Under the pieces are notes generated by a model. The model saw only the letters and a program-made list of their open reading frames with translations, did not search any database and was not told where the DNA came from. DNA of 64,000 nt from Candidatus Bathyarchaeia archaeon (lineage in GTDB: Archaea; Thermoproteota; Bathyarchaeia; Bathyarchaeales; Bathycorpusculaceae): assembly GCA_050010755.1 (NCBI GenBank), contig JBEKKK010000001.1:1344001-1408000 (forward strand), written 5' to 3'. Made by a program: the position numbers and the translations under genes. Positions 6,135 to 30,280 of the stretch are shown one piece after another. Position 1 is the stretch's first letter, and each line of letters starts with the position of its first letter.

Positions 6135-6148
6135 ACTAAAAGGGAGCG

Positions 6149-6583
6149 CTAAGACAATGGCTTGATTGAGAGCGCGACGTAGAAAGGATTCAAAGGGTTA
6201 GCGGAAGTCGTGTATATGGTTGTGACATTAAATTGTATTCCACCGTAAATAGAAGACTCTGAACCTACGTTATAAGATGCATTAAGATAAACTGGAAAAT
6301 TGAAAACGTTCTGGTTCTCAGGAAAAGCTGAATCATTAACGTATGAACTTGTTTCAACAGAAATCCAATTCGACTGGCCATACTGCCAATCGAAAGCATA
6401 GACTGTTCTTACGTTCTCTCTTTTATCAGTGTAAGAAGCAGGAACTCCAGAATAGACATTTAATTCAGTGTATCCTAGATTGGATTTTGAGAAGGGATGA
6501 GTAATTATTACACCAAGCAGGAATGCCACACATGCAATAACTATCACCCAAGCTATTATTCTGTTTCTATCCATCTTCCCCAA
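6149..6583 (-). CDS. Membrane-anchored hypothetical protein
   Basis: N-terminal TM helix followed by a beta-rich polar region. Confidence 0.7.
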   Translation of the reverse strand: MGKMDRNRIIAWVIVIACVAFLLGVIITHPFSKSNLGYTELNVYSGVPASYTDKRENVRTVYAFDWQYGQSNWISVETSSYVNDSAFPENQNVFNFPVYLNASYNVGSESSIYGGIQFNVTTIYTTSANPLNPFYVALSIKPLS

Positions 6584-6731
6584 TTCATCAAGCTATGTCC
6601 TTTAAAATAAACCTTTCACCATCATTCAACAAGTACGGGCGTGAAGATAACTTCTTTTTGGCGCGCGCTAAATCATAGCTCAGACACAATAAATCGCTAA
6701 ACATATATTCCTATAATTAGACGTTTTAACC

Positions 6732-7544
6732 ATGACTGATAACGCTGCTGAGGCAATATTAGACGATATGGAGAAGCAAGGTTTCCCACTTGAGATACGA
6801 GTAACCGAGATGTTAAAAGCCCATGGTTGGAGTGTCTACAATCAAGAACCCTACTTTGACAGAAATACAAACAAACAGAGAACAATAGACATCGAAGGCA
6901 TAAGAAGCATTGACTTACCTAAAGGAGAATGGGTATTTCAGGTACGGCTCATTATAGAATGCAAAAAATGCAGTAAACCATGGGTATTTTATGTTTCTGA
7001 TATAAGTAGAGATGAAATAAGAAACGAGCTTCCCTTTTACACCAAAATTTACTCTGACAGCTCAAACCAATTAGATTTTCCTAAAAACCAAATCCAGACC
7101 GATGACTACGTCCCTCAAATCTTGTTCAAAAAAGAGCTTGAGCAACTTATTTTTGAAAAATTAGCGCGTATTGCATATGAACCCTTTACAGATGGCAAAG
7201 GAAACAGCATTCGTAGAGCACGAACACAAGTCTGCAACGCAATCATAGACCTTAAGCGAGATCTAGCTCAAAGTATGGGAGTGGAAATTCCACATTATAT
7301 GCTGTTTAAACCTATAATCATTCTTGACGGTCAATTATACACATATCAAGAAGAGAACCTCATTAAGAAAAAGGGACTCTACTATTACGTAAGATTTTAT
7401 GATGAAACATTCATCATCGAAGTGGTGACTATAGGTTTTCTCAACGAATACCTCACAAAAATTGAGAACAATATCAATAACTTTCTGAGAACACAAGAAG
7501 CGCGCACACTACAAGCGATAGAAACAAAAAAGGCAGCCAACTAG
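6732..7544 (+). CDS. PD-(D/E)XK nuclease-fold protein
   Basis: GFPLE.RV...GW.V...YFD....RTIDI...LIIECKK...PWVF pattern. Confidence 0.7.
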   Translation: MTDNAAEAILDDMEKQGFPLEIRVTEMLKAHGWSVYNQEPYFDRNTNKQRTIDIEGIRSIDLPKGEWVFQVRLIIECKKCSKPWVFYVSDISRDEIRNELPFYTKIYSDSSNQLDFPKNQIQTDDYVPQILFKKELEQLIFEKLARIAYEPFTDGKGNSIRRARTQVCNAIIDLKRDLAQSMGVEIPHYMLFKPIIILDGQLYTYQEENLIKKKGLYYYVRFYDETFIIEVVTIGFLNEYLTKIENNINNFLRTQEARTLQAIETKKAAN

Positions 7545-7755
7545 AAAAGAAACAAAGCAACCAGCAGACCTGCTCAACTAACTTGCGAAAATGCTCACGG
7601 CCAAAGCATAAAACAACACTATCAACGCTCTAGCGCGGCTTTTGGCTCGCACTCGCTTCGCATCGTGCTCGCATCACCCACATTACGCGCGCCTAAGGAG
7701 CTCGTAGAAACGATTAAATAGGAAACAATTTAAGGTGAAATGGAGTGATAAAACC

Positions 7756-8796
7756 ATGAGCGGAGCGGAAGAGTCTAGAAAACAGAGACCCTTTCCAAGG
7801 AATACAGTCGAAGATGCCCTAAGAATTGCGAAAACAATTCTAGACCTTAACAATGGCAAACCCATGAAACGAATTTTTATTGCAGATCACTTGAAAATAA
7901 GACCCGATAGCACCAATTTCAAGTATTTGATTAGTGCCTCTTTTAGGTACGGTCTTACGCAAGGGAATGAGAAATCTGAATTCATCAGCCTGACACCCTT
8001 AGGCGAATCGATAGTGAGAGCAAAGGATGCAGAAAAGACGGCATTTCTCCAAGAGGCTGTTCAAAAGATACCTGTATTCCACAATTTCTATGAAAGGTAT
8101 CGAGATGCTAAACTGCCTACGGATGAGTATGCAAAGAAACTTCTAAAAGACGAGTTTCAGGTTCCCTCAGAGCATTTGGATGAATGCCTAAACATATTAA
8201 TCACGAATGGAAGATTCGCAGGACTAATAAGAGAAGTAGCAGGAGCCACTCGTGTTGTTTTTGAGACGGCTACTTCAGCTACTCCTGTAGTCCCGCAAGA
8301 GTCAGAAGCCCAAGGAGAAGAAGGAGCGGGAGAGGAAAAGGAAGAGAAAGCCGAGCTACTCAAGGAGCAAATCAAGAAGCCACGGGTATTCATTTCTCAC
8401 AGCAAAAACAAGAAAATAGTCGACCAGATAAAACAGATTTTGGATTTTGGACAGTTTGAATATGTAGTTGCAGAGGAAACAGAAACTACAGCGATTCCTA
8501 TTCCTGACAAAATCTTTGGATTGATGAGAGACTGTGATTGCGCAATAATAAATGTAAGCGCAGATGAGCAAGAGAAACGAGCCGATGAAACCTATGGAAT
8601 AAATCCCAACGTTCTCGTGGAAATTGGCGCCGCTTTCCTCAAGTATAACAAGAAAGTGATTTTACTCGTGGACAAGAGAATAAACTTGCCTTCGAATTTG
8701 CAAGGGCTATACCGAAGCGAGTATGAAGGCGATGAACTCACCTTTACCACGGCAATGAAATTACAAAAAGCACTCACGGATTTTAGGAAACTGTGA
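7756..8796 (+). CDS. Winged-helix-like N-terminal domain fused to a TIR-like (PF10137-type) domain
   Basis: C-terminal RVFISHS...AIINVSAD...NPNVLVEIGAA...LPSNLQG; N-terminal YGLT.G...ISLTPLG; acidic linker. Confidence 0.8.
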   Translation: MSGAEESRKQRPFPRNTVEDALRIAKTILDLNNGKPMKRIFIADHLKIRPDSTNFKYLISASFRYGLTQGNEKSEFISLTPLGESIVRAKDAEKTAFLQEAVQKIPVFHNFYERYRDAKLPTDEYAKKLLKDEFQVPSEHLDECLNILITNGRFAGLIREVAGATRVVFETATSATPVVPQESEAQGEEGAGEEKEEKAELLKEQIKKPRVFISHSKNKKIVDQIKQILDFGQFEYVVAEETETTAIPIPDKIFGLMRDCDCAIINVSADEQEKRADETYGINPNVLVEIGAAFLKYNKKVILLVDKRINLPSNLQGLYRSEYEGDELTFTTAMKLQKALTDFRKL

Positions 8797-8811
8797 TTGA
8801 AGGTTGAAAGA

Positions 8812-9354
8812 ATGTGGCATGAATATCCGATTCCGACAGATTTTGAGAACCAGAAAAGAATCATTAGGGCGTTGAGGGAATGGATAAAGCAACTTGAAGC
8901 TGACAACTTGATCTCTGGATTCGCGTTTAATCATTATTCCTCAAATCCTGAAGTGCCTGATGAACTTCGAGTCAGATTTCAATACTCTAATGAAAATAAC
9001 CGCGAGGGCGTAGAAAATCAATTAGAAACCGAAGTTAAAGAGATGCTACCGAATTATGTGATGCAAGAGAGGGAATGGGGCTCAGACACAACCGATAGGC
9101 ATATTCTCCAAGCCTACGAACTCGGAAGTAGATGGTCTTTTCTAGCTTGGGAACTAATCGAAAAGGGACGTTTTCCAGCGGAGTATTTCACGCGCCCAGA
9201 GTTCCAGTTCCATTTTAACCACGGAGTAATGAACTCTCTCGGTATTCCGAAAATCCCTGACGAACTAAACATTCACATAAACAACATAATGGATGCTACC
9301 AATTCGCGAACAAAAGAATCTCTAATAAGATGGTTGCAGGAACATCTTGCCTGA
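8812..9354 (+). CDS. Hypothetical protein, weak resemblance to the lantibiotic dehydratase C-terminal (Lant_dehydr_C) fold
   Basis: FAFNHYS...DELRVRF recalls FFIRY..PHLRLRF; gene directly follows the TIR gene. Confidence 0.55.
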   Translation: MWHEYPIPTDFENQKRIIRALREWIKQLEADNLISGFAFNHYSSNPEVPDELRVRFQYSNENNREGVENQLETEVKEMLPNYVMQEREWGSDTTDRHILQAYELGSRWSFLAWELIEKGRFPAEYFTRPEFQFHFNHGVMNSLGIPKIPDELNIHINNIMDATNSRTKESLIRWLQEHLA

Positions 9355-9522
9355 ACTCGACAATCCTTGGAATCCAATCCTTCCTTTCTCCCCACGCACC
9401 ATCTCCTTTTGCTGAAAAACTAATTATGGATTACTAGCGCGCGCCACCCAACAAACGAAAAACATTAAGCATACTCTCGCCAAAGAGGAATTAACAATAA
9501 CGACATCTGGTAGGTTACCAAA

Positions 9523-10254
9523 ATGACAATTGAGAATTGTGCATATTGCAGGGGAACAGGTAAAGATCCCAACACAGGCCTTATTAGCAAATTTAGGCCC
9601 TGTCCAGTTTGTAATGGGCACGGTGAGCGTACCATTGAGGTTCCCATAGACCAACTGAAGCACTGTCCTTATTGCAGTGGAACAGGTAAAGATCCCAACA
9701 CAGGCCTTATTAGCAATTATGAGCCCTGTCCAACTTGCGGAGGTTGGGGTCGAATTGCGAGATCTACATGCGATTCTTCTAAAAAGAAGGAAGAACCAAG
9801 TCCAGATTTGGGCAAGAGCAAACTTCAATTCTCAAATAGGATATTCATCGTTCATGGAAGAGACAGATTGCCAGCACTTGAACTCAAAGTGCTTGTTGAG
9901 GACAAGTACCCGATAGAAGCTATCCTTTTAGAAGAAAAGGCTCATCAAGGCAAGACTCTTGTTGAGAAATTGGAGAAATACTCTGATGTGAATTATGCGT
10001 TCATAATCATCACTCCAGATGACGTCGGATCATTGAAAGGCGAGCCTCTCAAAGAAAGGGGGCGCCAAAATGTTATTTTTGAATGGGGAGTTTTTCTAGG
10101 CAAAATAGGAAGGAGTAACACGTGCCTTCTAATCAAAGGAGATGGGGAAATTCCTTCAGATTTGCACGGAGTCGGATTCTACAGATTCAATGAGAGCGTA
10201 AAAGAGTGTTTTCTAGACATAGATAATGAACTCAAAGGAGCCAAAATAGTCTAG
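9523..10254 (+). CDS. DnaJ-type cysteine-rich zinc finger fused to a TIR-like (CAP12/PycTIR family) domain
   Basis: Four CxxCxGxG motifs; RIFIVHGRD...GKTLVEKLE...TPDDVG...RQNVIFEWG. Confidence 0.88.
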   Translation: MTIENCAYCRGTGKDPNTGLISKFRPCPVCNGHGERTIEVPIDQLKHCPYCSGTGKDPNTGLISNYEPCPTCGGWGRIARSTCDSSKKKEEPSPDLGKSKLQFSNRIFIVHGRDRLPALELKVLVEDKYPIEAILLEEKAHQGKTLVEKLEKYSDVNYAFIIITPDDVGSLKGEPLKERGRQNVIFEWGVFLGKIGRSNTCLLIKGDGEIPSDLHGVGFYRFNESVKECFLDIDNELKGAKIV

Positions 10255-10477
10255 CGCGCGCTCAAGTCACTTCGCTCCTTTCGCCGAAACTAAACCGTGC
10301 ACTATCCAAGAAATAGACGGAATCAGACTATGCAGAAAACGCAAATGAACTCAAACCTCCTCTTTCTCTAATTACCAAAACAGAGCGTCAGTTAGTCTCG
10401 TTGCCATCTGGTGGCAATCAGAAGGTTTTAAGAACTAGTTCCAAGGATGCTATAAGTGAGTTCTAGGAGACAATAGC

Positions 10478-10882
10478 ATGGAAAAAGAACTGCTCTTCGA
10501 AGCCAAAGAGAACGCCACCTCATTTAACATCAAGGAATTCAGCCCAGAAGGCGCGAAGATCGACATCACCCTTACGGGAAAAATCAACGGAAAGGTGAAA
10601 GGGACAATCATAACCACACACACTGTCCTCATGAAGCCTGACGGCACATCGAAAATCGATCACAGATCAGTCATCTTCAGCAACGGCGAGCCAATCTTCG
10701 TAATGGGAACTGGCATGGGGAAAATCGTGAACCCCGCTCCTGTGCGGGACGTTGAGGAAGACCTGACATTCCAGACACCATCTCAAAAACTGGCATATCT
10801 CAATACGACTAAGGGCTGGTCAAAGGGTCCCTTCAACCCCGAAACGGGCGAATACAACTTCAAGGTCTACGCCGTCAAGTAA
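10478..10882 (+). CDS. Hypothetical beta-rich protein
   Basis: 134-aa ORF with upstream AGGAG. Confidence 0.7.
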   Translation: MEKELLFEAKENATSFNIKEFSPEGAKIDITLTGKINGKVKGTIITTHTVLMKPDGTSKIDHRSVIFSNGEPIFVMGTGMGKIVNPAPVRDVEEDLTFQTPSQKLAYLNTTKGWSKGPFNPETGEYNFKVYAVK

Positions 10883-11142
10883 CGCGCAACACAACTTTTC
10901 AAAAAACGCAAATAACCCTCCTTTTTCTATGACCAACAGAACCAACACACTTCATCGCGCGCGCTAATAGCATTTTAAACAAGAATCAATTTGGCTCGTG
11001 AGCCTTCGGCTCACTCGCCCGTTCCAGACGATACGCCAAAAATGCCGATACGCTCAAAAACTGCTTGCACAAGTCTAAGCGAGGCGCGCGCTAGTTACCC
11101 TAATGTTTATCCTTTTGACAGATCATTAGTAGAAGTGAATAA

Positions 11143-11692
11143 TATGGAAAAGAAAGCTGTACTTATAACAACCTTGTGCGCTATGATTGTAGTTGTCATC
11201 TTTTTCCAGTTCATCCTGTTCAACACTTCGCTACCAAAAGACTACACGACATATTACAGCGAGTTCAACAAGACTCCCACGCTTGCATACAACTACTCCT
11301 TGTCTCCTCCAGTTTCCGTATACCAAGCGTTGTTGATAGCTCTAAATAGCCGATACTGGAACCGAGAATCCCTCGAAAATTTCAGCGTCTACATCGAGCT
11401 TGACTACTGGGCATACTTTACGAACCTTTCCCCTCCGAACGGAGTGTTGGAATTGGGTGGCGCAACTTACAGGTCGACTGGCAAACCCATAAGCGGAACG
11501 GCTATAATAAATACGGTGACACAACCGCCCGCGGATTGGTTACCTCAACAAATCGACAACATCACTTACCGATACGTCTGGACAATCAACGTCCAATATG
11601 TGATCCATCCCAATGATAAGATTCCTATTGTGCCTAGCTTGCCTTTTCAGTTTCAAGTTGACGCCGCAACCGCAGAATTAATTGAGCCATAA
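11143..11692 (+). CDS. Membrane-anchored hypothetical protein with a PepSY-like C-terminus
   Basis: MEKK plus TM helix; ends with FQVDAATAELI. Confidence 0.65.
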
Positions 11693-11960
11693 ACACGTTA
11701 AGCGTGCACGAAACGAAAAATCAAGAAAACGCCCAAGTCCTCGGCGACATAAGCCTTTCCCCTTCGCTCCGCTCAGGGTGCGCCTCCTTCGCAACTTTTT
11801 ACTGATGCAAAATATCCCACAAGGTCGCGCGCGCTACAAAAAAAGGCGAAATGCCAATCGAACGCCAAAGGAACAGCAACAATAACGCCACAAACAACCC
11901 GCTATACTCTCGCTAACAGGAACGAATTAACTAACACACGCTACAACAACAGAACACACA

Positions 11961-12034
11961 ACAGAACAAACAACGACAGAACAAACAACGACAGAACAAA
12001 CAACGACAGAACAAACAACGACAGAACAAACAAC
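11961..12034 (+). repeat. Tandem repeat, 15-bp unit ACAGAACAAACAACG, about 5 copies
   Basis: Perfect units at 11961, 11976, 11991 and 12006, partial unit at 12021, degenerate flanks. Confidence 0.95.
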
Positions 12035-12233
12035 AAACAACAGTAAACAACAGAACGCTATAAACACCCGCCGTTTTAACGCTCAGTAAAGTAACGCGGA
12101 AATCCAACAGAGCAACAAGCCGCCCGCACAGCGCGCGCTACTGACAGCTCAAGCAAGCCATCAACATCAACAAACCAAGCAAAGCTAGAAGCATTAGATG
12201 CTTCGCAAACTAATTTAGGAACAACCATGCGCG

Positions 12234-13031
12234 CTATTTCTTCGAATTGTGTATTAGATAATTGACAACAAAACCAAGTGCCATGAATGTAAACCCAACA
12301 GCATCTACCAATATACCTATCGTTTGGTAAGGATATACTCGGCGCGGAATCGATAAAACATCGGCGTGACTATATTGCATCTCGAAATAGGATGCCGCAA
12401 CCAAGCCAATCGCCAAAAGAAATATCCCCAAAATCAACAATACGTTGCTTCTCGCTAGCGCCCGCGCGCTGGTTGCCTCATTAACTAAGAAGGCACACAG
12501 AAACATTGCTATTGCAGGGTAAACAAGGTAGTAGCCTAGTTGATATCCTGCGAAAAATATATTGCCCGCCTGTATGAGGGCGCTCACGCACGTCATCAGA
12601 ACGACAACTAGTAGGCTAAGAAGAACTGGTGCAAGCAGTAATGTTTTTCTTTTGAATTTGATTGAAACCAAGCCTAGGACTAACGTGAGAAGTTGAGCTA
12701 TAAACATCATTGGTATAAACACCGACGCTGAATCAAAAGTAGATTCAACGTAATTGCTCGCCCAGTAATTATAGAACCATACCGTCTGCGCTAGCGTGCG
12801 CGAGCCAGAACTATAGAAAAAGAATTGGGTGGCCCTAGTCATGTACGACGAGTAATAGTTTGACCAGTTTTGACCAGACACAAAGCCATCAGACACCTGG
12901 ACACCATACCATTGAAGATAGAAGAACGGCAAAATGAAAGAAAATAGAAAAAGGAGGCATCCCACAACTGTGAATGTCTTTCTAAGGGTACCGCCAGTCC
13001 AATGTCCAACTGTTTTCTCAAGATAACTCAA
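12234..13031 (-). CDS. Multi-pass membrane protein
   Basis: About 6 hydrophobic segments; LPFF...GYYL pattern. Confidence 0.75.
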   Translation of the reverse strand: MSYLEKTVGHWTGGTLRKTFTVVGCLLFLFSFILPFFYLQWYGVQVSDGFVSGQNWSNYYSSYMTRATQFFFYSSGSRTLAQTVWFYNYWASNYVESTFDSASVFIPMMFIAQLLTLVLGLVSIKFKRKTLLLAPVLLSLLVVVLMTCVSALIQAGNIFFAGYQLGYYLVYPAIAMFLCAFLVNEATSARALARSNVLLILGIFLLAIGLVAASYFEMQYSHADVLSIPRRVYPYQTIGILVDAVGFTFMALGFVVNYLIHNSKK

Positions 13032-13283
13032 GTTAATCTAAAAGAAATATTACTAGAGCACCTTAAAAGGGCTATTGTTAAGAACAGCATTGCCAAAATC
13101 ATGTCATGCGCGCGCTCTTCGCATTCTTTTATCTTCTTTTCACTTATCCCCAAACCCACCAGATGGAATGATTGGGCGTATATTCATAAGCCGTTACAAG
13201 CGCACGCTCCCCGCAGTCCTAAAAAGTTGCTCAGTCGGGAAAGGCATATTGTCGCCTCGTCAAAGACGAATTAGGAATGTGGG

Positions 13284-13526
13284 TTGAATTACATGACAAA
13301 CCAAACAAACGAAACCCAAAAAAGAACATGTAAAGAAATAGAACACGGGAGACTGAGGACAGAAATAGAAATTCCCAAACTCCCAGAAAGGGCAAAAACT
13401 ATGAATGAAGAAACCAAACCCGAAACCAAGGATCAACCACAAACCAAAAACCAACAAGAAACACCAAAACCAGAATTACTTGTACTAAAGACGGGTTACG
13501 GCCAACACGCCAGCCTTTTTCGCTAA
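13284..13526 (+). CDS. Small hydrophilic ORF running through attR
   Basis: 80-aa ORF; the att core encodes its GYGQHAS segment; start uncertain (13293 or 13401). Confidence 0.4.
   Translation: MNYMTNQTNETQKRTCKEIEHGRLRTEIEIPKLPERAKTMNEETKPETKDQPQTKNQQETPKPELLVLKTGYGQHASLFR
13492..13515 (+). repeat. attR core (duplicated rnpB 3' end)
   Basis: Identical to 4940-4963 and followed by TTTTT. Confidence 0.9.
13516..13520 (+). terminator. Oligo-T tract, probably the original rnpB terminator
   Basis: TTTTT directly after the duplicated rnpB 3' end. Confidence 0.45.
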
Positions 13527-13761
13527 CCCGCCTCATTTTTACTTCCTCTTCGCGCGCGCTAATCTTCCCATTCTTCGATAATATTTACCAAACGGTTTCA
13601 CCTTGGACTATGTTGGCGCAGGAGTTTAAGGGAATTCTGGCACTGATAAAGCACAGTGTGCTTTAGAAGGCTGTACAAATATTGCAAGTTCGACCGCGCG
13701 CGTTTCAGAAATACTATTATCTGGGTTTGATCTGTCCTTTTCCAACTGGGAGATATGTGCT

Positions 13762-14034: not shown

Positions 14035-14040
14035 TCCGAC

Positions 14041-14598: not shown

Positions 14599-14700
14599 CC
14601 CAGCATTTGTACTAGTCCCATCCAACATTCGTCCGACTCTTCTTATAAAGGCGCGCGCTTGTGTGGTGACAATTAAGGAAACGTATTTAGAGAATAGGGG

Positions 14701-15807: not shown

Positions 15808-16119
15808 GAGCTGCAAAAACAAAAAATCTAACTCTCTCCTCTTTTTTAGCATATGGGAAAGATGTAAGACATAGTGCGTCAATGTTTTGTTGATATAGCT
15901 GTTCATTATTCTCTCAAGCTTCTGGATTCTGACGCGCTCTCGAGTGTTGCTAAAGGAGATGCAGAACGTTTTCTTTGAAAGCTTCAAGCGTTGGAGTTGT
16001 TGGTGCACATTGGAAGATTATGTAAGAGATTCCAGTTTCGTCTTTCTCGAGGCGCGCGCGTTTTGCATACGTTGACTCACCAGAAAGCTTATGCATCAAT
16101 CCCGTGATTTTGATACTAA

Positions 16120-16599: not shown

Positions 16600-16633
16600 T
16601 TTCATAATCGTAGCGCGCGCTTAAAGTAATTCT

Positions 16634-17089: not shown

Positions 17090-17267
17090 CTCTTTGCCCC
17101 ATCAATCTTCTGCCGCCTGCCGCTTTAAAGGTTTGTCGCGCGCGCTAAAATCGAAAAAACCGAAATAAATAACGCGCCCATCAGTGCGCGCTAGGCAAGT
17201 TTTCAGAGATAGAGCGCAGCGTTCAAGACGTTAGAAAGGACATTCAAGAACTGAAGAAAACAATCTC

Positions 17268-17786
17268 TTAAGTATGCGCAGTTTGATTTGTGTCATTTTT
17301 CTTACACTCCTTGCAACGCATAGGTTTTATGGGTTTGAAAGGAACTTCAAATAGCTTTCCACAATTACTGCACACAGTGTGATACATTGTCTTAGGAGCT
17401 GTTGAAAAATAGGTTTTGACTCTTTCTGTCGAGAAGTATGCGAAGGAGAAGAAGGGGTACAGGACAAGGTACGCTATTATCGGAATGAAGATGGTAGACG
17501 GGCCGACCCAGTAGACTAGCCAGATGTCGAAGAGGATGAGCAGAACCCAAGAGGCCATCGACAGAAAATAGCCTGCGCGCATTCCTAGAAATATGAGAAC
17601 AGTATCCGCAATGAACAATGTGCCGAACGCGGCGGTCAGCCCTATGAGCGTAAGCACTGGCGTTGAGGGTTCTCCTACCTGTGCCCATACAGAAAGAAAG
17701 AAAATTGCGATTAACCATGCTCCAATAGCGGTTAACACGGTGAACAGGCACACCAGAGTGACCCCAACTGGCTGGACTCTCTCCAC
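17268..17786 (-). CDS. Four-TM membrane protein with a C-terminal CxxC..CxxC zinc ribbon
   Basis: QPVGVTL...VKTYF followed by CSNCGKLFEVPFKP....CKEC. Confidence 0.75.
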   Translation of the reverse strand: MERVQPVGVTLVCLFTVLTAIGAWLIAIFFLSVWAQVGEPSTPVLTLIGLTAAFGTLFIADTVLIFLGMRAGYFLSMASWVLLILFDIWLVYWVGPSTIFIPIIAYLVLYPFFSFAYFSTERVKTYFSTAPKTMYHTVCSNCGKLFEVPFKPIKPMRCKECKKNDTNQTAHT

Positions 17787-18210
17787 AGCGTCACCAAAAG
17801 TTACATTTGTTTCCGAAGATAAAAACTTTAAGCGACAGCCAGAAAAAAAGTTTTTCAGAACAAGGCTGGACGGAGACTGTGTTTTGCGAATGAAGCTGCC
17901 AGCAGGCTCTGTTCAGACTCGAAACTCACTCATAACAACATGTAAACTCACTGTACAGTTGCCCATCTGCAGGACGATTTCAGGATTAACCCGTTTAACG
18001 ATGCGGGAGAACGCAGTAACCGCTTCGGTCCAGCCCGCGCTCACAACTGCCAAAACTCTCCAGACTCATCAACAAGCGCACAGGAGCCGAGAAGATGATT
18101 GCCGTCAACACAGCAGACCACGTTAAACACGCCTTGCCACTTCACATCCCATTTTCGAAAAAATTCATTCAACACGCCAATTATTTAACTCACCCGCGCG
18201 CACTGCGATT

Positions 18211-18786
18211 CTACGTTGGCAGAGGGGGAAAAGGTTGGGGTGGTATTATTGCCTCAACGGGCTTTGGCACGCGCTCTCTAGTTAGTGCGGCAAACATCAT
18301 AATCGCGGCAACCAAGGCCAGCCAAAAACCGAAAGATAGGTACGACGAGTAATCCATGGATATTCCAAGGTAGCCGTATGAACCACTGGAGAACAAACCT
18401 GCTCCTGTTGGGATCCCCGTAACCAAAGACCCATTTGAAATCTGGCTTTGCAATCCCGCAGCGAATATAATAATCGAAAACAAAGCAAGTATCCCGCCAA
18501 GTGAAAGCACAATCCTTCTTCCATTAGCAATGACACTACCTGCCAAACCCAGCAAGCCGCCTAACACCACAAATGCCAAGGCAATCGAACAATACCAAGG
18601 AAGATTCGTTGAAGCGGATAATGATATACCTGTTATGGTCACTCTCGTTTGGTATAGGTACAGAGCAACCTGATCAGAGAGGTTCATTCCCATGCCTGAA
18701 CTCGAAATGCCCATAGCCCACCACGGTAACACCAAGCTAATGAAAGCCAATATGCCTCCGATAAAACCTGAATAGTTAATTCTCAA
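18211..18786 (-). CDS. Four-TM membrane protein
   Basis: LPWW...GFWLAL pattern; Pro-rich tail. Confidence 0.75.
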   Translation of the reverse strand: MRINYSGFIGGILAFISLVLPWWAMGISSSGMGMNLSDQVALYLYQTRVTITGISLSASTNLPWYCSIALAFVVLGGLLGLAGSVIANGRRIVLSLGGILALFSIIIFAAGLQSQISNGSLVTGIPTGAGLFSSGSYGYLGISMDYSSYLSFGFWLALVAAIMMFAALTRERVPKPVEAIIPPQPFPPLPT

Positions 18787-18881
18787 ATTGCGCCCCCCAC
18801 TCTACAATGTCGCGCGCGCTGTCCTCGATTTTAATCGAATTCATTTTCATATAAAACTTTCTAAGGCGCGCGCTACGAAGC

Positions 18882-19984: not shown

Positions 19985-20024
19985 CAACACGCCAACCAAC
20001 ACGCCAAAGGCGCGCTATCTCTTT

Positions 20025-21020: not shown

Positions 21021-21306
21021 TTTTATGCCATCAAAAAAACTATTGAGACCCGTGGATCTATTTATGTGATTACTTGTTTCAGCGCGTGCAGAAACAGTGG
21101 ATGCGTTTCCTAGCCGACCAAACTGAAGATGAGTTGACCCTTCACAGCATCAACTCCTAATTCCAGTCTCAGAACGTCCAAGTTCACTATTAGATATTAG
21201 GCGCGCGCGTGAATTATGAGAACGCGTGTTGCTGCGGCACTACAGTCACACAGGCTTAAATATCGTGCACATTATTCTTGTTATCAGGTGATTTGGTTTG
21301 TTGTTC

Positions 21307-22325: not shown

Positions 22326-22380
22326 ATCAATGTCGCGCTCGCATCACGCTCGCGCTCCAACCAATGAAAACACAAAAGCG
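22326..22380 (+). repeat. 55-bp direct repeat, copy 1
   Basis: 52/55 identical to 24095-24149. Confidence 0.9.
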
Positions 22381-22840
22381 CGCGCTTATTCTATAGGATT
22401 TTTCAAAGACGCGTGCTACTACACGCGACCTTGTTCCCAACGTCCATGCGCACGAAACCACGCTTCATGATGCGCAAAATCACCAAAAGTCTTCAAATGC
22501 GAAGCCAAATCTGCCTCAGTTGCAAACACACAGGGGCACCAACGACACTTAAAACACTTCTCAACTTCACTCATGTAAGCCACAGCGGATCTAACACATA
22601 AACACTGATAAATCTAATCCTCACTACTAGGGCGCGCACGCTAATAGCAACGTAAATAGACGCGCTATCTAGACGCAGTATCAGAATGCATTAAGCGCGC
22701 GCGATGAGCATCATTTCTACTTCATTGCTTCTTTCTTCTTTTTTCTTCTTTCATTCTATCTCTCTTTGTTTTGGTTACCATGGCGTCACGCCCCATTTAC
22801 CAGAATGGCAAGCGCCCTACAAAACGCTTATGTCTCCAGA

Positions 22841-23125: not shown

Positions 23126-23213
23126 CTTTCTATCGCGCGCGCTAAGCAATCGTTTATATAAAGTGCAGTCGCGTTATAACAACGACACAAAAACTAAGGA
23201 GAAAAGCAGAAAA

Positions 23214-23276: not shown

Positions 23277-23476
23277 CTAAGGAACCATGATGGAAGCAGA
23301 CGCACAAAATGCCAAGTCCTTAATCACCTTCCGCGCGCGCATGAGCAAGCCGAAGTCTTGAAGCCCCAAGAAAGAGCACGGCAAGACTCTTTTTCTCTTT
23401 TTACGCGCGCGAGACATCGCAACACAACGAAAATTAGAGTGCGGTTATTTAGACTCACTGTAGACAACAAGTAAGG

Positions 23477-24031: not shown

Positions 24032-24094
24032 ACACTCATCAACAAAGCGCGCGCGCTCTCTTCTTTCAAACCTCCAATCGAATTGATTCAACCC

Positions 24095-24149
24095 ATCAAT
24101 GTCGCGCTGGCATCACGCTCGCGCTCCAACCCATGAAAACACAAAGGCG
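24095..24149 (+). repeat. 55-bp direct repeat, copy 2
   Basis: 52/55 identical to 22326-22380. Confidence 0.9.
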
Positions 24150-24292
24150 AGCGCGTCACGCTAGACCGATAAGGAAACAATTTTGAAAGAGCTGTCGATT
24201 TGGTCGGCCGGAGGGGTTCCTTTGCAGAAGTAGAGACTCCTTAGCGGGGCGCGCTATCACTATTGTTTGTTTTTGTCCATCAAATCACGTCA

Positions 24293-24763: not shown

Positions 24764-24822
24764 TCATATCACCAACACACGCGACACCGCAACTCATACA
24801 AGCAAATGAACAGAATGACACC

Positions 24823-24865: not shown

Positions 24866-24890
24866 ATGTTTGTGCCCTGCTTCGAGCGCG

Positions 24891-24989
24891 CTAGTTAAGC
24901 ACCTGCCCTTAGGGGATGTCAGCGGCGACGGTATAGTTAACATGAGAGACATCGCTCTCGTGGCCAGAAACTTGGGAAACCACGAATAA
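24891..24989 (+). pseudogene. Dockerin-like gene fragment
   Basis: LGDVSGDGIVNMRDIALVARNLG..* with no convincing gene body upstream. Confidence 0.65.
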
Positions 24990-25154
24990 CACAACTCACC
25001 GCGCACTATTTGGGATTTGAGTTTTTCGATCAGCGCAAACATGGACTGGAAAGTTGAAGCGCCAAGGAGCTGTTAACCAAGGTCTATTCTATCTACGGAC
25101 ATGCGCTCTCGAGTAAATCCTGCCGCTCTAACCTCTGCCTGCGTCGCGGGTGAG

Positions 25155-25904
25155 TTATTTAGCGAGCACCGTGACAGTACTGTTGGACAAGATGGGTGTT
25201 GTCAGATTTAATCCTGGGTCAAGATAATACGTCCCTAGCAACAGGTCGTTACCCAGGGATAAACCGAGGGTTGATGAGCCTGAAGAGAGTGCCTTGAACG
25301 TTACTTGGCATAGAAATCCTGAGCCGTAAAACGTCGTTTGGTTTTGCCCTAACAGACTATCGCCGGCGAGCACGTATCCTTCATCATTTTGAATAGATTG
25401 TAACGGTCTCTGGGTAAATTCTGTGCTGTTGAAGTCTATAAGAGCCTGAGACACTGGGTATTTGTCTGAAAACACTTGCGGGTTTGGAACTGAAACATTG
25501 ACGCACTCTACAATTGTAGAGTTGAAAGTGAAATTGATCTGCCAAGCATACATGTTTGTGAGGTTCTCAGCGAAGACGGAAACGGAAAACATGTCACCGG
25601 CACTCACGTTGACTTCCTGAGGAAGCACCATAAAAATTGTTTCATTGTCAGGGTTGGGCATAACCATATCTGATGTCGATTGCGTAGTCGAAACTGAGCC
25701 AGTAGTCCCCGGTGATTGAGTCGCCCGCGCAGAGTTAATAATCTGTGTCGAATCAATCATCGGCACCGAGCTCATCGGCGGCGTCGTCTGAGTCGTTGGA
25801 ATCGAACCCGTCGCTGAAACAAACAAACCGATAAAGGTGACGCCCAGCAGAAGACAAACGCAAACGGTGAGAGAGACTATTCTGGAAAATGCACCACGGT
25901 TCAA
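25155..25904 (-). CDS. Secreted cohesin-domain protein
   Basis: Signal/TM, Thr-rich linker, FSVSV...MYAWQINFTFN...GSG.LCQVTFKA..SG.S.L. Confidence 0.78.
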   Translation of the reverse strand: MNRGAFSRIVSLTVCVCLLLGVTFIGLFVSATGSIPTTQTTPPMSSVPMIDSTQIINSARATQSPGTTGSVSTTQSTSDMVMPNPDNETIFMVLPQEVNVSAGDMFSVSVFAENLTNMYAWQINFTFNSTIVECVNVSVPNPQVFSDKYPVSQALIDFNSTEFTQRPLQSIQNDEGYVLAGDSLLGQNQTTFYGSGFLCQVTFKALSSGSSTLGLSLGNDLLLGTYYLDPGLNLTTPILSNSTVTVLAK

Positions 25905-26125
25905 CGTAACCTAACACCACCTAAGCATATAGAGAGGTCCAACTTTTAACTCTGTCGCAAACTGAAACAGAAAGAAACGACTTTACAAGTTTCCTCAAAG
26001 AATCCACATCTCCAGAACTTCAAATGAAACAAACAACCGCGTACTGTGAAAGTTCTGTTACGAACGTTAACATGCCTGCTTACAGCAATAGTAAGACAAC
26101 TCCAAGAAAACTCTTCCCTTGCAAT

Positions 26126-26863
26126 TTAATCTCTTCCTCTGCAGGCTTCATATTTCGAATCACACAAGTGCCCTAACACATAGAAAAAGAAGTAGTTTCT
26201 CCACCACACCTTGTAGCTCTTCAACAATCCCCACTGTCCAAGTCTTCGACTGGACTCAAAAACGGGAGTCGACAACACTTTTGTCCGTCCGTAAGACGAT
26301 GCCTTCCGCAGCATGTCTGTTATCTCCAGCATTGGAAGTTTTTCGTTAAACCCCTTTATCCTCCAAAAAATGTCTTTCCTTACCGCAGTCATATCTCCTC
26401 TGTTATAAAACTTCAAAAGAAAACTCAGATAAGCGCATAACCTGACGTACAACCCATCTAACACATAGAACAAGACACTTGAGAGCGTCCTTCGTCGAGA
26501 CGAAGGTAAAACCCGCGAGATTACAGAAACCACGGAAGTATCTCTGAACTCTTTAGCGACATCAGTGAGCGAAGACTTCTGCAACGTCGTATCCGCATCC
26601 ATGAAAATCAAGATGCTGCCCTTTGCCAGACTCGCGCCGAAATTCCTCGCCCTAGAAACACCACGAGGAAGAAACGCGTACACGTTCTTGACGTATTTCC
26701 TTGCCTCTCCAACCGTGCCATCACTGCTACTATCTACTACGATAATTTCGGTGCTGACCCCGTATCTTCCAACCTCTTCACTAGCTTCTTTTACCTTCCT
26801 CAAAGTTTTTCCTATATATTTCCGTTCGTTCCTAGTGACCAAAATGACTGAAAGATCCGCCAT
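26126..26863 (-). CDS. Glycosyltransferase family 2
   Basis: LSVIL...EIIVVD.SSDGT...ARNFGA...FMDAD. Confidence 0.92.
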   Translation of the reverse strand: MADLSVILVTRNERKYIGKTLRKVKEASEEVGRYGVSTEIIVVDSSSDGTVGEARKYVKNVYAFLPRGVSRARNFGASLAKGSILIFMDADTTLQKSSLTDVAKEFRDTSVVSVISRVLPSSRRRTLSSVLFYVLDGLYVRLCAYLSFLLKFYNRGDMTAVRKDIFWRIKGFNEKLPMLEITDMLRKASSYGRTKVLSTPVFESSRRLGQWGLLKSYKVWWRNYFFFYVLGHLCDSKYEACRGRD

Positions 26864-26902
26864 TCAACCACATCCACAAACTGCATCAAGAAAGGAGCGA
26901 CA

Positions 26903-26989
26903 GTTAATTCCTGCCTTGTTGACCACGATGTCAACGATTGTTGACCTCCAGCCTGTTCTTCGTAACTGTTGTTGTCAACCAATGTTGAC
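26903..26989. promoter_or_regulatory. TTGAC/GTCAA element, copy 3, plus an extra GTCAA-N6-TTGAC at 26974-26989
   Basis: Between the divergent GT2 gene and the wHTH-TM regulator. Confidence 0.7.
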
Positions 26990-27062
26990 TACTGGTTCGG
27001 TGGCGGTTGATAACGGCAAGGATTAATTACGAGTTGCTTAGAGAAAGGTTTCAGGACTCGCA

Positions 27063-28187
27063 ATGGTAGATGCTGCGGAACTCTTTGAAGCTATTTCGCA
27101 TCCTGAGCGAATAAGAATTCTCAAAATCCTTGAGAAGCAACCCACTAGCTTTGCTTCCCTGAAGAGACAGTTGGGCATTGACAGCAGCGGGAACGTCGAC
27201 TTCCACCTCAAGAAACTCGCAGAACTCGTCGCAGTCAGGGAGGATGGGTTGTACGGGTTGACAGCCGCAGGGAAAGAGGCTCTCCTGTCCATAGACGCAG
27301 TAGAAGCATGGGCGGAAATGGAGAGACGGAAAACCAAGATGTTCAGAAAAATGCCCAACGAAGCGTTCGCCCTTGGGTTGCTAGAAATCTGCAGCTCGAC
27401 AGCTTTAATCTTCTGGTTCTTGCTACCCCAAATTCAATTGCCTTTTATCATGGACAGCCTATGGGGATACATCTTTTTTGGGGCCCTGGTACTCCTAGGC
27501 TTCCGTTCAGGCATTGGCGCATTCTTCCATTTGAGCTGGAGCTGGACTATGACTCTGGCCAAATCAGCTCTGATCATTTCAATGAGCCTCTTTCTACTCG
27601 ACTACATCTGGACACCAGGAGCAGTCACACAATCAGGCCTCGTGGCGCTCTCGTATCTGGCCTTCGTTGCTGCGGAAATAGCTGCTGTAATTCTGGCATT
27701 GAGACCTTTACTAAAGGATTACCTTGGAATAATAAGCCGGGCCAAACTGCCCCGCCGTGACCTCATCGGCAGCCTACTATGCATCTCCGGGGGGATGCTG
27801 CTAATTCTTCTGGAAAATGCAGTTCGCTTTCACGTTCTTCCGAACACGTTAAACCTACTAATGCTACCCGACCATGTTGGCACAGTTTTCGCCTCTATGG
27901 CCGATACATCCATTCTATGCGGCCTACTCATGATTGCCGGAGGCGTTCTAATTCCGCTAAGAAGCAGCATCCTGGGAGCCGTAATCAGCATCATCTTCGG
28001 GCTTTTCCCCACTCCGCTTTCTATCATTCCCTGGCTTCCAAAGCAAACAACCCACCACGCTTTCGAGCTCATATACGGAATAAACCAATCATTGCCGTAT
28101 GCCTTAATCGCCGCAATAGTCTACGCTCTGCCAATAGTTGGAGGGCTACTTGCTCTGTACAGTGCGTGGCGAAAAATCCGAACATAA
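27063..28187 (+). CDS. ArsR-like wHTH domain fused to a multi-TM domain
   Basis: LFEAISHPERIRILK.L...SSGNVDFHLKKL...YGLT..G, then 7-8 TM segments. Confidence 0.85.
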   Translation: MVDAAELFEAISHPERIRILKILEKQPTSFASLKRQLGIDSSGNVDFHLKKLAELVAVREDGLYGLTAAGKEALLSIDAVEAWAEMERRKTKMFRKMPNEAFALGLLEICSSTALIFWFLLPQIQLPFIMDSLWGYIFFGALVLLGFRSGIGAFFHLSWSWTMTLAKSALIISMSLFLLDYIWTPGAVTQSGLVALSYLAFVAAEIAAVILALRPLLKDYLGIISRAKLPRRDLIGSLLCISGGMLLILLENAVRFHVLPNTLNLLMLPDHVGTVFASMADTSILCGLLMIAGGVLIPLRSSILGAVISIIFGLFPTPLSIIPWLPKQTTHHAFELIYGINQSLPYALIAAIVYALPIVGGLLALYSAWRKIRT

Positions 28188-28299
28188 ACTAACCATACTG
28201 CATGCACTAAGAAATGTCTTGCATAAACCTGGGCGACCAGCGCGCGCTAACAAACCATTATATTTGTTGAACCGTAACTGTAGTAATGAGGTTTACTGA

Positions 28300-28413
28300 A
28301 TGGGAATAATTCAAAAGAAATGTTCAGTTTGCGGAAAAGCCTTTACGACATTAGATGCCAAAACCAAGTATTGCAGTGCCCAATGCGCCAAAAAAGCAAA
28401 TAAGAAAAAGTAG
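28300..28413 (+). CDS. 37-aa zinc-finger microprotein
   Basis: MGIIQKKCSVCGKAFTTLDAKTKYCSAQCAKKANKKK*; upstream GAGG. Confidence 0.65.
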   Translation: MGIIQKKCSVCGKAFTTLDAKTKYCSAQCAKKANKKK

Positions 28414-28559
28414 CCCGCATGCCTGCTATTCATAGCTTCGCGCGCGGGAACTTAAGGTAAAGCTTAATCTTGCACACATGGTTAATGATAATCTCCAAAC
28501 CTAAATGCCAAAAAAGATGTACTTGAGAAGACGCTAAAGGAAACCACAGGAAGTTAGAT

Positions 28560-28841
28560 ATGTCCAAGAAGAGGCAATCTAGAGCCGCAGATAACGCCGC
28601 TGAAGTAAAGGAATTCCTTGAAGTAACCCAATTTTCATCAGTTTTTACTAATATGAATTGTGTCGCCTCCAGACAGAGACACTACTACTGCGAACACTGC
28701 AAAGCCTATGTCTCAAATATTGACGCTGATGAGAAATTTGAATTAGTTGCCTCATTCATAACACGAACTATCACGGAAGTTGTTACTGCCAAACACAAAA
28801 AGTGTGGACAATTATTAACAGAAAAATTCTGGGAAGGATGA
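28560..28841 (+). CDS. Hypothetical protein with CxxC and HxxC
   Basis: YYCEHC...HKKCG. Confidence 0.5.
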   Translation: MSKKRQSRAADNAAEVKEFLEVTQFSSVFTNMNCVASRQRHYYCEHCKAYVSNIDADEKFELVASFITRTITEVVTAKHKKCGQLLTEKFWEG

Positions 28842-29324
28842 ACTAAACGCGCTATCACAACACAATTCTAGCGAAATTGATGGTTTCCTCAGCAATGAAA
28901 CTATCCTTTATTGAAATGGCTTGATCAAGCTACGACACTCGCAATTCGCTTTATCGGGCACCTTCGCGTTAGGTTGGCTGGGTTGAGCGTGCGTGTGCCG
29001 TTGACTTTTTTCGTTTCTCAGTCCAGACAATGCTCCAACCTACAAACCATTCCAATATTTTGAATGCCCGCACGTACAAATTGCCCAGCGGTTTCCTCAA
29101 TTGGCTTGCCCAAACATTGCTAGTGACTAAATGTTCTCTTACGCCTTTTTGTTAAGTCCAGTTCAGTAAATAGTCAAATGTTTTTCGCATAATCACAGGG
29201 GGGGTTGTTTTGTTTTGCTTCTGTTTTTCTTGCATTCCTGGGATGCGTGCAAGAGAGCGCTCTCCCTTTCACTGCGCGTGTGTGGAAATCGATATGAGCC
29301 CAAATTTACGTTATCCACGGCTGT

Positions 29325-30026
29325 TCATACGGTTTCAGAAAGTATCCTCTTTAGAATCGTCAATCCATGTCTCAGCTTTAGCTTTTTCTCGCCCAATCTT
29401 TTTCTATATCGGATTGGAACTTCAACGATGTCGTAACCCTTCTTCTCGACGTAATGGTTCAGCTCGGCTTCAACATCGAAGCCTTTTGATCTCGGCTTCC
29501 AATCTTTCATGATATCCCACCTCACAAGGCGCAGACCAGTTAGCGGATCTTCCAGGTGGACCCCGTTCAACAGGTTGTGAGCGAAGGCCAACAATCTGTT
29601 TCCAACATAAAACATGTTATGCATTGATTCGAAATCGAGACTTCCAGCGAACCTGTTCCCACAGACCATGCCCGTCTGCGGATTCTCCTCAAGTATTCTA
29701 ACCATCTTGAGCAAATGTTCCGCTGGGTAAGTATAGTCCGCGTCGATGAACACCACATATCTAGCATCAATTAGCTGCGCATGAGCTATTGCGGTTGCGA
29801 TCGCATCGCCTTTACCTGAACCTTTCTGTGTTAAAACTACAGCTCCCATGCTCTCGGCGATCTTCGTCGTACAATCCGTACTCCGTCCATCGACAACCAA
29901 GCAAAAGGGCTTATCCAAACAAGTCTTGATCTCGGCAAGCGTCGGGCCCACTCCTCTCTCTTCGTTCAGAGCGGCGACTATCACCAATATTGACGGTAAA
30001 CCACGTGTTTTCTGAATCATGAACAA
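29325..30026 (-). CDS. Glycosyltransferase family 2 (Dol-P-sugar synthase-like)
   Basis: ALNEE, VVDG.STD.T, GKG.A, DAD.TYP, GF.VE.E, R.GEKKL. Confidence 0.93.
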   Translation of the reverse strand: MFMIQKTRGLPSILVIVAALNEERGVGPTLAEIKTCLDKPFCLVVDGRSTDCTTKIAESMGAVVLTQKGSGKGDAIATAIAHAQLIDARYVVFIDADYTYPAEHLLKMVRILEENPQTGMVCGNRFAGSLDFESMHNMFYVGNRLLAFAHNLLNGVHLEDPLTGLRLVRWDIMKDWKPRSKGFDVEAELNHYVEKKGYDIVEVPIRYRKRLGEKKLKLRHGLTILKRILSETV

Positions 30027-30280
30027 GACATCTCAGGCGCGCGAGGTGCCTCATCATCATCGCGCTTTGCTGTGTTCTTATTGAAGCTACCGCAGCGCTT
30101 GCCCTTAGATTCTAGATCAGGGCACTGCGATCTTCAATCATTCTCCGCTATTTGCTCTCCATCCCTTCTGATTTAAAGCAGCAAGAACCATCAGGTTAGA
30201 ACCTGCTCGTTCTTAACACTTTAAATAGGCATGAGGGCAGCAAAGATTTTTGCACGTTCCGATGTTAGTGCCGACGCCTG

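Follow-up and report, generated by a model that had tools for sequence, protein, structure and literature searches.

The attC sites of integrons are imperfect palindromes of 57-141 nt with R and L boxes and are read by IntI as folded single strands; integron cassettes are mostly promoterless, co-oriented and expressed from Pc. The pdif site is 28 bp long and has an XerC and an XerD arm (two 11-bp arms, 6-bp spacer). Integron gene cassettes with attC have been reported in Archaea (bioRxiv 10.1101/2022.02.06.479319). On Acinetobacter plasmids, pdif modules hold accessory genes between short recombination sites and are exchanged among replicons, seemingly with the help of a housekeeping recombinase (PMC6449649, PMC13141974, PMC7399989). 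Here we describe a short GC palindrome in a Bathyarchaeia metagenome-assembled genome (MAG; G000, 2.19 Mb in 8 contigs). The stretch analysed, called the window below, is the 64 kb G000:C1:1344001-1408000, and coordinates refer to it unless another sequence is named. The palindrome is the octamer GCGCGCGC in the consensus (T)A-GCGCGCGC-T(A), that is (T)AGCGCGCGCT(A), and it probably marks the junctions of gene modules, where gene-sized pieces have been joined in or cut out.

Repetitive extragenic palindromic (REP) sequences and bacterial interspersed mosaic elements (BIMEs) are hairpins of 20-40 nt with a GTAG head and a cognate Y1 transposase; they are intergenic and lie preferentially after genes and between convergent genes. 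The GC clusters of yeast mitochondria are mobile elements of 30-40 bp that form GC-rich palindromic islands in AT-rich spacers and are associated with recombination and rearrangement. The highly iterated palindrome HIP1 is abundant inside genes. HIP1 (GCGATCGC) is a lineage-restricted and highly over-represented octamer palindrome of cyanobacteria (PMC4390886, PMC5861425), is read by two methylases (PMC4390886), and has been linked in recent work to horizontal transfer or transformation (PMC5861425, PMC13756078, bioRxiv 10.1101/2024.09.10.611283). By word search, a HIP review (PMC4390886) mentions neither archaea nor GCGCGC, and full-text searches, supplements excluded, returned no description of the motif.

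Results

Abundance and form of the palindrome

The octamer GCGCGCGC occurred 26 times in the window, whereas 100 dinucleotide-preserving shuffles gave a mean of 0.69 and a maximum of 4. In the whole G000 genome, 253 copies were present, 219 of them intergenic (0.525 per kb) and 34 coding (0.019 per kb). Genes were called with a home-made, crude caller based on open reading frames (ORFs) and hexamers, which gave 2,119 genes in G000, covering 81% of the bases. When copies on both strands were compared with a first-order Markov expectation, 424 were found in intergenic DNA versus 8.0 expected (about 50-fold) and 68 in coding DNA versus 46 expected, which is near expectation; GCGCGC itself was under expectation in coding DNA. 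This intergenic versus coding count had been put forward as a check by a first-pass annotation of the window.

The consensus palindrome given in the first-pass annotation holds genome-wide: position -1 is A in 135/253 copies and position +1 is T in 133/253. TA is preferred both before and after the octamer, nothing is conserved further out, and there is no wider symmetry. We defined a GC run as alternating G and C of at least 6 nt. Runs of 8 nt start with G in 147 cases versus C in 22, and runs of 10 nt in 19 versus 0; the longest is a single run of 11 nt. Because the phase is specific and the length is capped, slippage or a purely structural (Z-DNA) role is disfavoured, and a specific sequence that is read or copied is favoured. 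Half-flanked forms were oriented independently of strand (41 versus 41 on contig C1). Around the motif we found no longer repeat family common to the spacers, and no preferred spacing between motif pairs.

One could suppose that the motif acts as structural DNA, with Z-DNA or a GC clamp in AT-rich spacers absorbing supercoils or causing breaks, and with no sequence-specific reader. The alternation of purine and pyrimidine and the location between transcription units suit this idea, and Z-forming repeats provoke rearrangements. However, pure structure predicts neither the phase nor the capped length nor the TA flanks. The Z-DNA alternative raised by the first-pass annotation is disfavoured by the phase specificity, and we regard a structural role as exceedingly improbable.

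In the relatives we counted TAGCGCGCGC. It was present in 48-231 copies in 5/5 genomes of the genus (G000-G004), and in 56 and 142 copies in G018 and G021, respectively, which represent two other genera. Among 34 other relatives, 30 had 0-3 copies and four (G013, G019, G023 and G024) had 7-19; a reversed control word gave 0-27 copies. The palindrome is a genus-wide word and not a local cassette array, and it is also found in two other genera.

A short, lineage-restricted octamer palindrome, present tens of times above expectation, resembles HIP1. By analogy, the motif could be a mutational by-product of a methyltransferase with biased repair, or of another drive, with selection clearing it from genes and conserved spacers. 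The very high excess within one lineage is consistent with this, and some copies differ from the orthologous or paralogous place by point changes alone. However, unlike HIP1, the Bathyarchaeia motif is at expectation in coding DNA, where GCGCGC is even below it, and it sits at homology ends (see below), which a mutational drive does not predict. The m5C methylase family PF00145 exceeded its cut-off in 0/5 genomes of the genus, and a gene for a type IV SRA-HNH nuclease is present; N4/N6 methylases were found, for example beside an MvaI/BcnI-type nuclease. The counts in coding DNA and the PF00145 result disfavour the HIP1-like m5C-methylase alternative of the first-pass annotation, and a by-product of HIP1 type appears quite improbable.

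Distribution over core and flexible DNA

From the relatives, 459 kb of G002, 45 kb of G003, 17.7 kb of G004 and 20 kb of G001 were sampled, and 387 kb of G002 were used for the comparison of core and flexible DNA with G000 (median protein identity 83.5%). The 95 conserved syntenic spacers of G002 held only 2 copies of GCGCGCGC (0.02 per spacer, 0.15 per kb). In contrast, spacers whose two orthologues are present but non-adjacent in G000 (n=34) held 0.53 per spacer (1.56 per kb), spacers with one orthologue (n=85) held 0.38 (1.09 per kb), and spacers without an orthologue (n=111) held 0.34 (1.10 per kb). The density per kb was 7-10 times higher in non-syntenic than in syntenic spacers. The first-pass annotation had named equal frequency in core spacers as the result that would count against it; the observed values were 0.02 versus 0.34-0.53 copies per spacer. 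We assign the motif to the flexible genome.

Of 71 syntenic spacer pairs, 5 had the motif in G000 and 6 in G002; two pairs had it in both genomes, and never at an aligned place. Because no aligned place is conserved, the sites turn over fast and are not conserved cis-elements.

These numbers bear on the idea of an uptake or self tag, a signal similar to the DNA uptake sequence (DUS) or uptake signal sequence (USS) that would favour uptake or recombination of DNA from the same genus. Restriction to about one genus, hundreds of copies and a location after genes would fit such a tag. So would a module described below, which is 98-99% identical in three species although its flanking genes are about 85% identical, and which suggests recent exchange of motif-bounded DNA. 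Known uptake sequences, however, are frequent in core DNA, whereas the conserved spacers here are almost free of the motif. An uptake tag also does not predict exact homology ends. Thus weighed, a tag of this kind seems very improbable.

The copies form two clusters on contig C1 of G000, one at 940-985 kb and one at 6-32 kb of the window, with 1.7 and 2.3 copies per intergenic kb versus 0.43 elsewhere in the genome; about 170 intergenic copies fall outside both hotspots. The first-pass annotation had reported only a few copies outside 6-30 kb of the window; the motif is not particular to this region, given 253 copies genome-wide and a second hotspot. Its local description is accurate: we counted 37 GC runs of at least 6 nt between 6661 and 30043 (more than 30 had been reported), of which only 4/37 lie inside ORFs (at 7500, 12463, 17575 and 24886, by the crude gene calls), and outside 6-32 kb the window has runs at 1393, 1464, 38928 and 46335 and four more inside genes. 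The window hotspot is situated downstream of the RNase P RNA gene. The second hotspot contains stress and defence genes, and no recombinase was found in it. It also holds, at G000:C1 958628-960352 and 987635-988405 (L115 and L116), the MvaI/BcnI-type nuclease beside the N4/N6 methylase and, nearby, the gene for the SRA-HNH nuclease (methyl-cytosine-directed, type IV).

With respect to genes, the motif is enriched within 0-40 nt past stops (82 observed versus 41 expected) and depleted in the 60 nt ahead of starts (22 versus 44.6). Spacers between convergent genes contain 0.89 motifs per kb versus 0.40 between divergent genes. The motif tends to precede T-tracts. Its association with TATA-like boxes is weak: for a minority of motifs such a box lies at +10..+14 (14 in this 5-nt bin versus roughly 5 in a typical bin).

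This placement is what would be expected of a boundary element, that is, the binding site of an abundant lineage-specific dimeric protein, which would keep transcription units apart (above all those of genes acquired recently) in the role of insulator, roadblock, terminator helper or upstream promoter element. The enrichment past stops, the depletion ahead of starts, the preference for convergent over divergent spacers, the T-tracts after the motif and the TATA-like boxes of the minority are all on its side, and palindromy with phase specificity would suit a dimeric protein. However, 2 copies in 95 syntenic spacers and none at an aligned place would be odd for a host transcription signal, and for only roughly 7% of the well-scored genes does a GC run lie 50 nt or less from the stop (our own estimate from the counts). 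A boundary element also leaves the stop of homology at the motif edge and the filled and empty sites described below unexplained. For these reasons we consider it unlikely.

Junction evidence

The clearest local case is an insertion of 1,069 bp. Its inserted module (12140-13195, minus strand) lies between AGCGCGCGCT at 12130-12139 and AGCGCACGCT at 13196-13205, which has one mismatch to the motif. The insert comprises a 95-nt element, GCGCGC at 12229-12234, and an ORF on the minus strand (12234-13031, without a Pfam match) together with its upstream region, in which GCGCGCGC lies at 13108-13115. In contig G003:C14 the site is empty: homology ends at the left junction copy, and a single AGCGCGCGCT is present without the insert. 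The same empty joint was seen in a contig of peat sequencing run X9, one of four runs whose contigs were matched, where 12135 is joined to 13205 at a depth of 172, with 104 nt on the shorter side and 4 shared letters.

Two further features lie at this site. The 95-nt element (12139-12234), which lies between two motifs, has a hairpin with a 7-bp stem. G000 has one copy of it; short matches are numerous in G001-G004, and contig depth over it in the peat runs is very high, up to 1,040 at position 12200. Directly left of the motif at 12130, positions 11936-12041 hold about 6-7 tandem copies of a 15-nt unit (AACAACGACAGAACA-like).

The 10-bp direct copies around the insert and the single copy at the empty site would also be produced by target-site duplication, in which a transposase- or integrase-like enzyme prefers the symmetric AGCGCGCGCT and duplicates 10 bp, so that the motif is a landing site and not a partner. 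Tn10 has symmetric hot-spot targets with 9-bp duplications, and contig ends of G001, G002 and G004 carry Y1 transposases of the IS200/IS605 type. However, the inserts share neither ends nor inverted repeats, the DNA between one motif pair is unrelated to that between another, and no multi-copy insertion sequence was found in the G000 assembly. The IS200-type element carries CCCCGG hairpins and not the motif, and to our knowledge the IS200/IS605 family makes no target duplication. The 50-fold over-representation of the target would also stay unexplained, and a target-site duplication is improbable. As for the element itself, an IS200/IS605-type Y1 transposase gene is present at 17150-17662 of L086, at the end of contig G004:C3, with CCCCGG...CCGGGG hairpins on both sides; in both G002 and G004 the copies are found where contigs end, and the G000 assembly has none.

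Further modules are bounded by the motif. The cassette 18196-18873 extends from one motif to the next in the window, in G003:C14 and in the metagenome contig L118 (89% identity), and in G003 and L118 its order relative to the RNase P RNA differs. In the window it is a single-gene cassette (18202-18865, minus strand) with a membrane-like ORF (18211-18786), a TATA-bearing upstream region and an internal run at 18811-18819. Its left end is CGCGCGC at 18195-18201, 9 nt past the stop of the minus-strand ORF, and its right end is GCGCGCGC-TA at 18866-18873, 8 nt past the stop (18882) of the next minus-strand ORF. A metagenome scan with the cassette protein gave 3 loci only, one identical to the window and one G003-like.

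The left end of the cassette is at the same time the right end of another unit, a segment of about 360 nt (17843-18194, bounded by the run at 18195-18201) that occurs in at least 6 further places in G000 with 77-88% identity. In three aligned copies, and in further matches of this family, homology stops at the right-hand GC run. In addition, G002 and G000 differ by a replaced segment whose end coincides exactly with GCGCGCGC in the former and with GCGCGTGC in the latter.

A third module (L084 9051-9592) has 400-530 bp and two very basic microprotein ORFs, and is 98-99% identical in G002:C6, G003:C14 and G004:C3. It has a different left neighbour in each of the three species, and each neighbour abuts the motif, while the genes flanking the module are about 85% identical among them. 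This high identity suggests recent exchange or strong constraint. Positions 23356-23404 of the window match the module in part.

We then compared the positions of homology ends with those of the motif. An all-vs-all BLASTN of G000 and the sampled stretches gave 1,521 high-scoring segment pairs (HSPs; at least 100 nt, at least 75% identity) with 2,568 distinct ends, which are not independent events. At signed offsets of -1, 0, +1 and +2 from the outer edge of the motif, we found 11, 22, 15 and 10 ends, respectively, compared with 13 in total at -30..-4 and about 3-6 per nt at +14..+30. Of the motif runs, 37 lie at an HSP edge and 49 lie more than 30 nt inside an HSP, and none does both. Counted as GC runs, 43 ends fall at the edge versus 6 that run 4-30 nt past it (nested matches counted). 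By our reading of the HSP list, the 56 edge HSPs represent about 20 independent families.

Control words behaved differently. Twenty other palindromic hexamers had 0-6 edge ends each, and for most of them homology continues past the word; it also mostly continues past the intergenic control words T6, A6, TATA-like, GCGC, CGCG, CTAG and TTAA. As a positive control, GGGGG and CAACATTA, which lie at the terminus of an unrelated 75-nt repeat family, gave edge peaks. This separate intergenic family of about 75 nt is represented at 32383-32458 (also 32238-32260) and has about 70 BLAST hits in G000. It holds the over-represented CAACATTA and CATCAGATG, ends with an A-run and GGGAGGGG, is often paired, and has sharp termini in the homology-end test.

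One candidate unit was rejected: the microprotein ORF 28300-28413 does not travel with its motifs, because it is conserved in G002:C2 without flanking motifs.

The integrated element and the search for a partner

The RNase P RNA gene (4651-4958, plus strand, Rfam) overlaps with its 3' end the left copy (4932-4963) of a 32-nt att repeat; the right copy, at 13484-13515, is 94% identical. The gene is the integration target of a tyrosine-recombinase element, whose integrase (4836-6134, plus strand) scored 72.8 bits against a cut-off of 220 with the XerA/integron-integrase model NF040815 and was under the cut-off of all other NCBIfam models as well. No relatives of the integrase were found in viral contigs. 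Further att-like copies and variable, motif-rich DNA were seen at the RNase P locus in G002:C6, G003:C14 and G004:C3, and the locus looks like a hotspot of tandem integration. The stretch is also present in peat and wetland metagenomes. In peat run X7, contig depth was zero at 6000-10000 (the left part of the element, with two TIR genes) and the rest was covered; the integrated element is probably absent in this population.

Partners of the motif were sought by phyletic pattern with five Pfam families (PF00145, PF01797, PF07282, PF00239 and PF00589). The result for PF00145 is given above, TnpB-type PF07282 showed no pattern matching the motif-rich genomes, and the other three are considered in the Discussion.

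Comparison with described systems

Like integron cassettes, the units of the window are unrelated, contain one or two genes, have a signal just past the ORF, and would add one signal per unit. Unlike them, the signal has 8-12 nt, the units are in both orientations and the sites occur all along the chromosome. Either strand carries genes, several of them with a TATA-like box at a distance of 8-13 nt from a motif. There is no IntI beside the array, where the recombinase at 4836-6134, with the low score given above, is the sole one. Nor were attC sites seen, in a comparison made without an attC covariance model: beyond two bases on either side of the octamer, nothing is conserved.

Three units resemble dif modules, namely the insert 12140-13195, the cassette 18196-18873 and the module L084 9051-9592; most other junctions are without the motif. 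The differences from pdif are that 8-12 bp are conserved and that the replicon is an archaeal chromosome. By analogy, the motif appears to work like the signals of attC and dif modules but fails the defining features of both systems (site architecture, IntI or Xer, and orientation).

As in REP/BIME, there are hundreds of intergenic palindromic copies, preferentially past genes and between convergent genes. However, an 8-mer has no hairpin potential, no extended palindrome is present, and the family of the REP-associated tyrosine transposase, PF01797, is absent in G000, G003, G018 and G021. Compared with the yeast GC clusters, the unit of 8-12 bp is small and shows no sign of moving alone as an element. 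The motif being part of a miniature inverted-repeat transposable element or other mobile repeat was also considered and rejected: the sequences between and beside motifs are unrelated, and the sole long family is the one of 360 nt that ends at the motif. The scarcity in conserved spacers is unlike the distribution of DUS/USS.

Other features of the window

The cargo named in the first-pass annotation was confirmed by Pfam: two TIR proteins, a lipocalin, TRAM, CxxCxxCC, a Na/Ca exchanger and several helix-turn-helix proteins. Its statement that the motif serves as a stop codon stands in two of three cases. At 10254-10261, the TAG stop of the TIR gene 9523-10254 takes its final base from the first G of GCGCGCGC, and the GCGCGC at 12229-12234 directly adjoins the stop (CTA, a TAG on the reverse strand) of the minus-strand gene ending at 12234; the third case, GAGCGCTA at 6149, is not a GC run by the definition used. 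The annotation had placed the motif 6-16 bp past five further stops (16599, 18882, 20025, 23125 and 24031), and we find a run 8-15 nt past each of them. Also as described there, the runs at 23134 and 28240 have a TATA-like box after them, and the motif goes on past the att repeat.

Left of the inserted module, GCGCGCGC followed by TA lies in the divergent spacer at 6661-6668, and TA-GCGCGCGC at 9437-9444 is 82 nt past the stop of ORF 8797-9354. At 10956-10964, CGCGCGCGC-TA has a TATA-like box about 8 nt downstream; GCGCGCGC-TA at 11084-11091 lies 52 nt upstream of the called start 11144, and the CGCGCGCGC-TA at 11826-11834 is kept at the aligned place in G003:C14.

Directly past the right att repeat there is CGCGCGCGC-TA (13551-13559), and then a C-phase run, CGCGCGCG (13695-13702). 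The octamer at 14651-14658 is 52 nt past the stop 14598 and 42 nt ahead of the start 14701. It is followed by GCGCGCGCG at 16052-16060, with TTTT directly behind, by TA-GCGCGCGC-TTAA at 16613-16620, 13 nt past the lipocalin stop 16599, and by CGCGCGCGC-TA at 17137-17145, with GCGCGC-TA 41 nt on at 17186-17191.

To the right of the cassette, GCGCGC-TA at 20010-20015 lies 9 nt past the stop (20025) of the Na/Ca exchanger, and TA-GCGCGCGCG at 21201-21209 is in a divergent spacer. The octamer at 22378-22385 ends a 73-nt duplicate, whose other copy (24082-24154) reads GCGAGCGC. TAA-GCGCGCGCG is at 22695-22703 and GCGCGC at 22632-22637. The CGCGCGCGC-TA at 23134-23142 is 8 nt past the stop (23125) of the TRAM gene and has TTTATATAAA 12 nt downstream. 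At CGCGCGCGC (23332-23340) and at 23404-23411, short homology blocks of G004:C3, G003 and G002 start or stop. GCGCGCGCGC at 24047-24056, 15 nt past the stop 24031, is followed by a T-rich tract. Ahead of the zinc-ribbon microprotein ORF 28300-28413 (37 aa), GCGCGCGC-TA at 28240-28247 has a TATA-like box 13 nt downstream, and a C-phase run (28439-28446) comes after this ORF. The octamer at 31974-31981, within the ArsR-like ORF 31813-32127, is among the few coding copies.

At the left of the window, GCGCGCGCGC at 1464-1473 lies 111 nt ahead of the TBP gene, with a TATA-like box 13 nt downstream; synteny with four congeners begins 50-70 nt to its right. The nearest matches to this TBP gene are in Bathyarchaeia MAGs. 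The plus strand has an A-over-T skew of 0.13-0.25 across 4000-26000, irrespective of gene strand, and the spacers are A/C-rich on this strand. No tRNA genes were found in the window; an Rfam scan of it at gathering score gave the RNase P RNA alone, and a permissive Rfam scan of 17700-18300 gave nothing. Pfam gave nothing useful for four small ORFs beside junctions.

Discussion

With about as much doubt as conviction, we favour the view that gene-sized modules enter and leave the chromosome at the motif, which would serve as a crossover point or as a microhomology. In this mechanism, the motif on an incoming or excised piece would pair with a chromosomal motif, and after the join the insert would have a motif copy on either side. 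A series of such events would turn integration-prone regions, such as that downstream of the RNase P RNA gene, into motif-punctuated arrays. Because each event leaves a copy at each side, regions with many inserts become arrays and conserved spacers stay free of the motif. That motifs are found past stops and at a distance from core promoters would mirror which insertions the host tolerates. The phase and the capped length may be due to an enzyme that recognises the sequence or to inheritance through copying. We infer recombination at the motif itself rather than merely beside it; the same holds for the direction (insertion or deletion) and for the agent, an enzyme or an 8-10 bp GC-rich microhomology.

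The first-pass annotation had proposed a recombination or junction signal of cassettes. This proposal is supported in part: homology ends at the motif edge, a filled and an empty site exist, one module has three different neighbours, and the motif is denser in non-syntenic spacers. Against it, most breakpoints are without the motif and no recombinase is tied to it. Several observations weigh against a crossover at the motif. Only 56 of the 1,521 HSPs have the motif at the edge, and one seven-copy family supplies many of these coincidences. At the RNase P loci, neither sequence has the motif within 5 nt of the end for 223/252 HSP ends, and 44/48 indel breakpoints between G000 and G002 likewise lie farther than 5 nt from any motif (4 are within this distance); many of these indels contain no motif whatever. 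When the motif was masked, 58 ends lay within 5 nt versus 28 expected, but a deficit was found at 6-60 nt. Because the excess is offset by this deficit, the masked test alone could be an alignment artefact; the masked breakpoint tests gave only about 2-fold enrichment, and our conclusion rests on the unmasked signed-offset test. The gene end that faces an edge motif is the 3' end in 7 cases and the 5' end in 11, and thus there is no attC-like polarity. The filled and empty pair is equally compatible with deletion between two copies.

The search for an enzyme also speaks against it. No recombinase tied to the motif was identified, and the integrase of the window uses the separate 32-nt att. Serine recombinase PF00239 matches 1/41 genomes (G007) and no motif-rich genome. 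The Y1 transposase PF01797 is present in G001, G002 and G004, with 0 matches in the four genomes named above. PF00589 has 3 members in G000, 6-22 in its congeners and 28 in G021, yet 10-15 in motif-poor genomes. In addition, known tyrosine-recombinase sites are much longer than 8-12 bp.

A stronger form of the crossover view can be offered only tentatively, as a possibility with clearly more against it than for it. In the genus and at least two related genera, a dedicated enzyme would recombine any two copies of TAGCGCGCGCTA (10-12 bp) and thereby move promoter-carrying single-gene modules within and between species. Such a system would be the archaeal equivalent of integrons and dif modules, but its site would be far smaller and it would have no fixed platform.

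Bathyarchaeia abound in sediment and peat and are largely uncultured. The motif offers a simple, countable mark by which gene gain and loss in them can be approached directly; it predicts where modules start and end, what DNA is a recent acquisition and between which genomes a gene pool is shared. Should there be a dedicated enzyme, the motif would be among the shortest natural recombination sites known and a possible tool. If the process is driven by microhomology, it would be a clear natural case of a short repeat that shapes the architecture of archaeal genomes.

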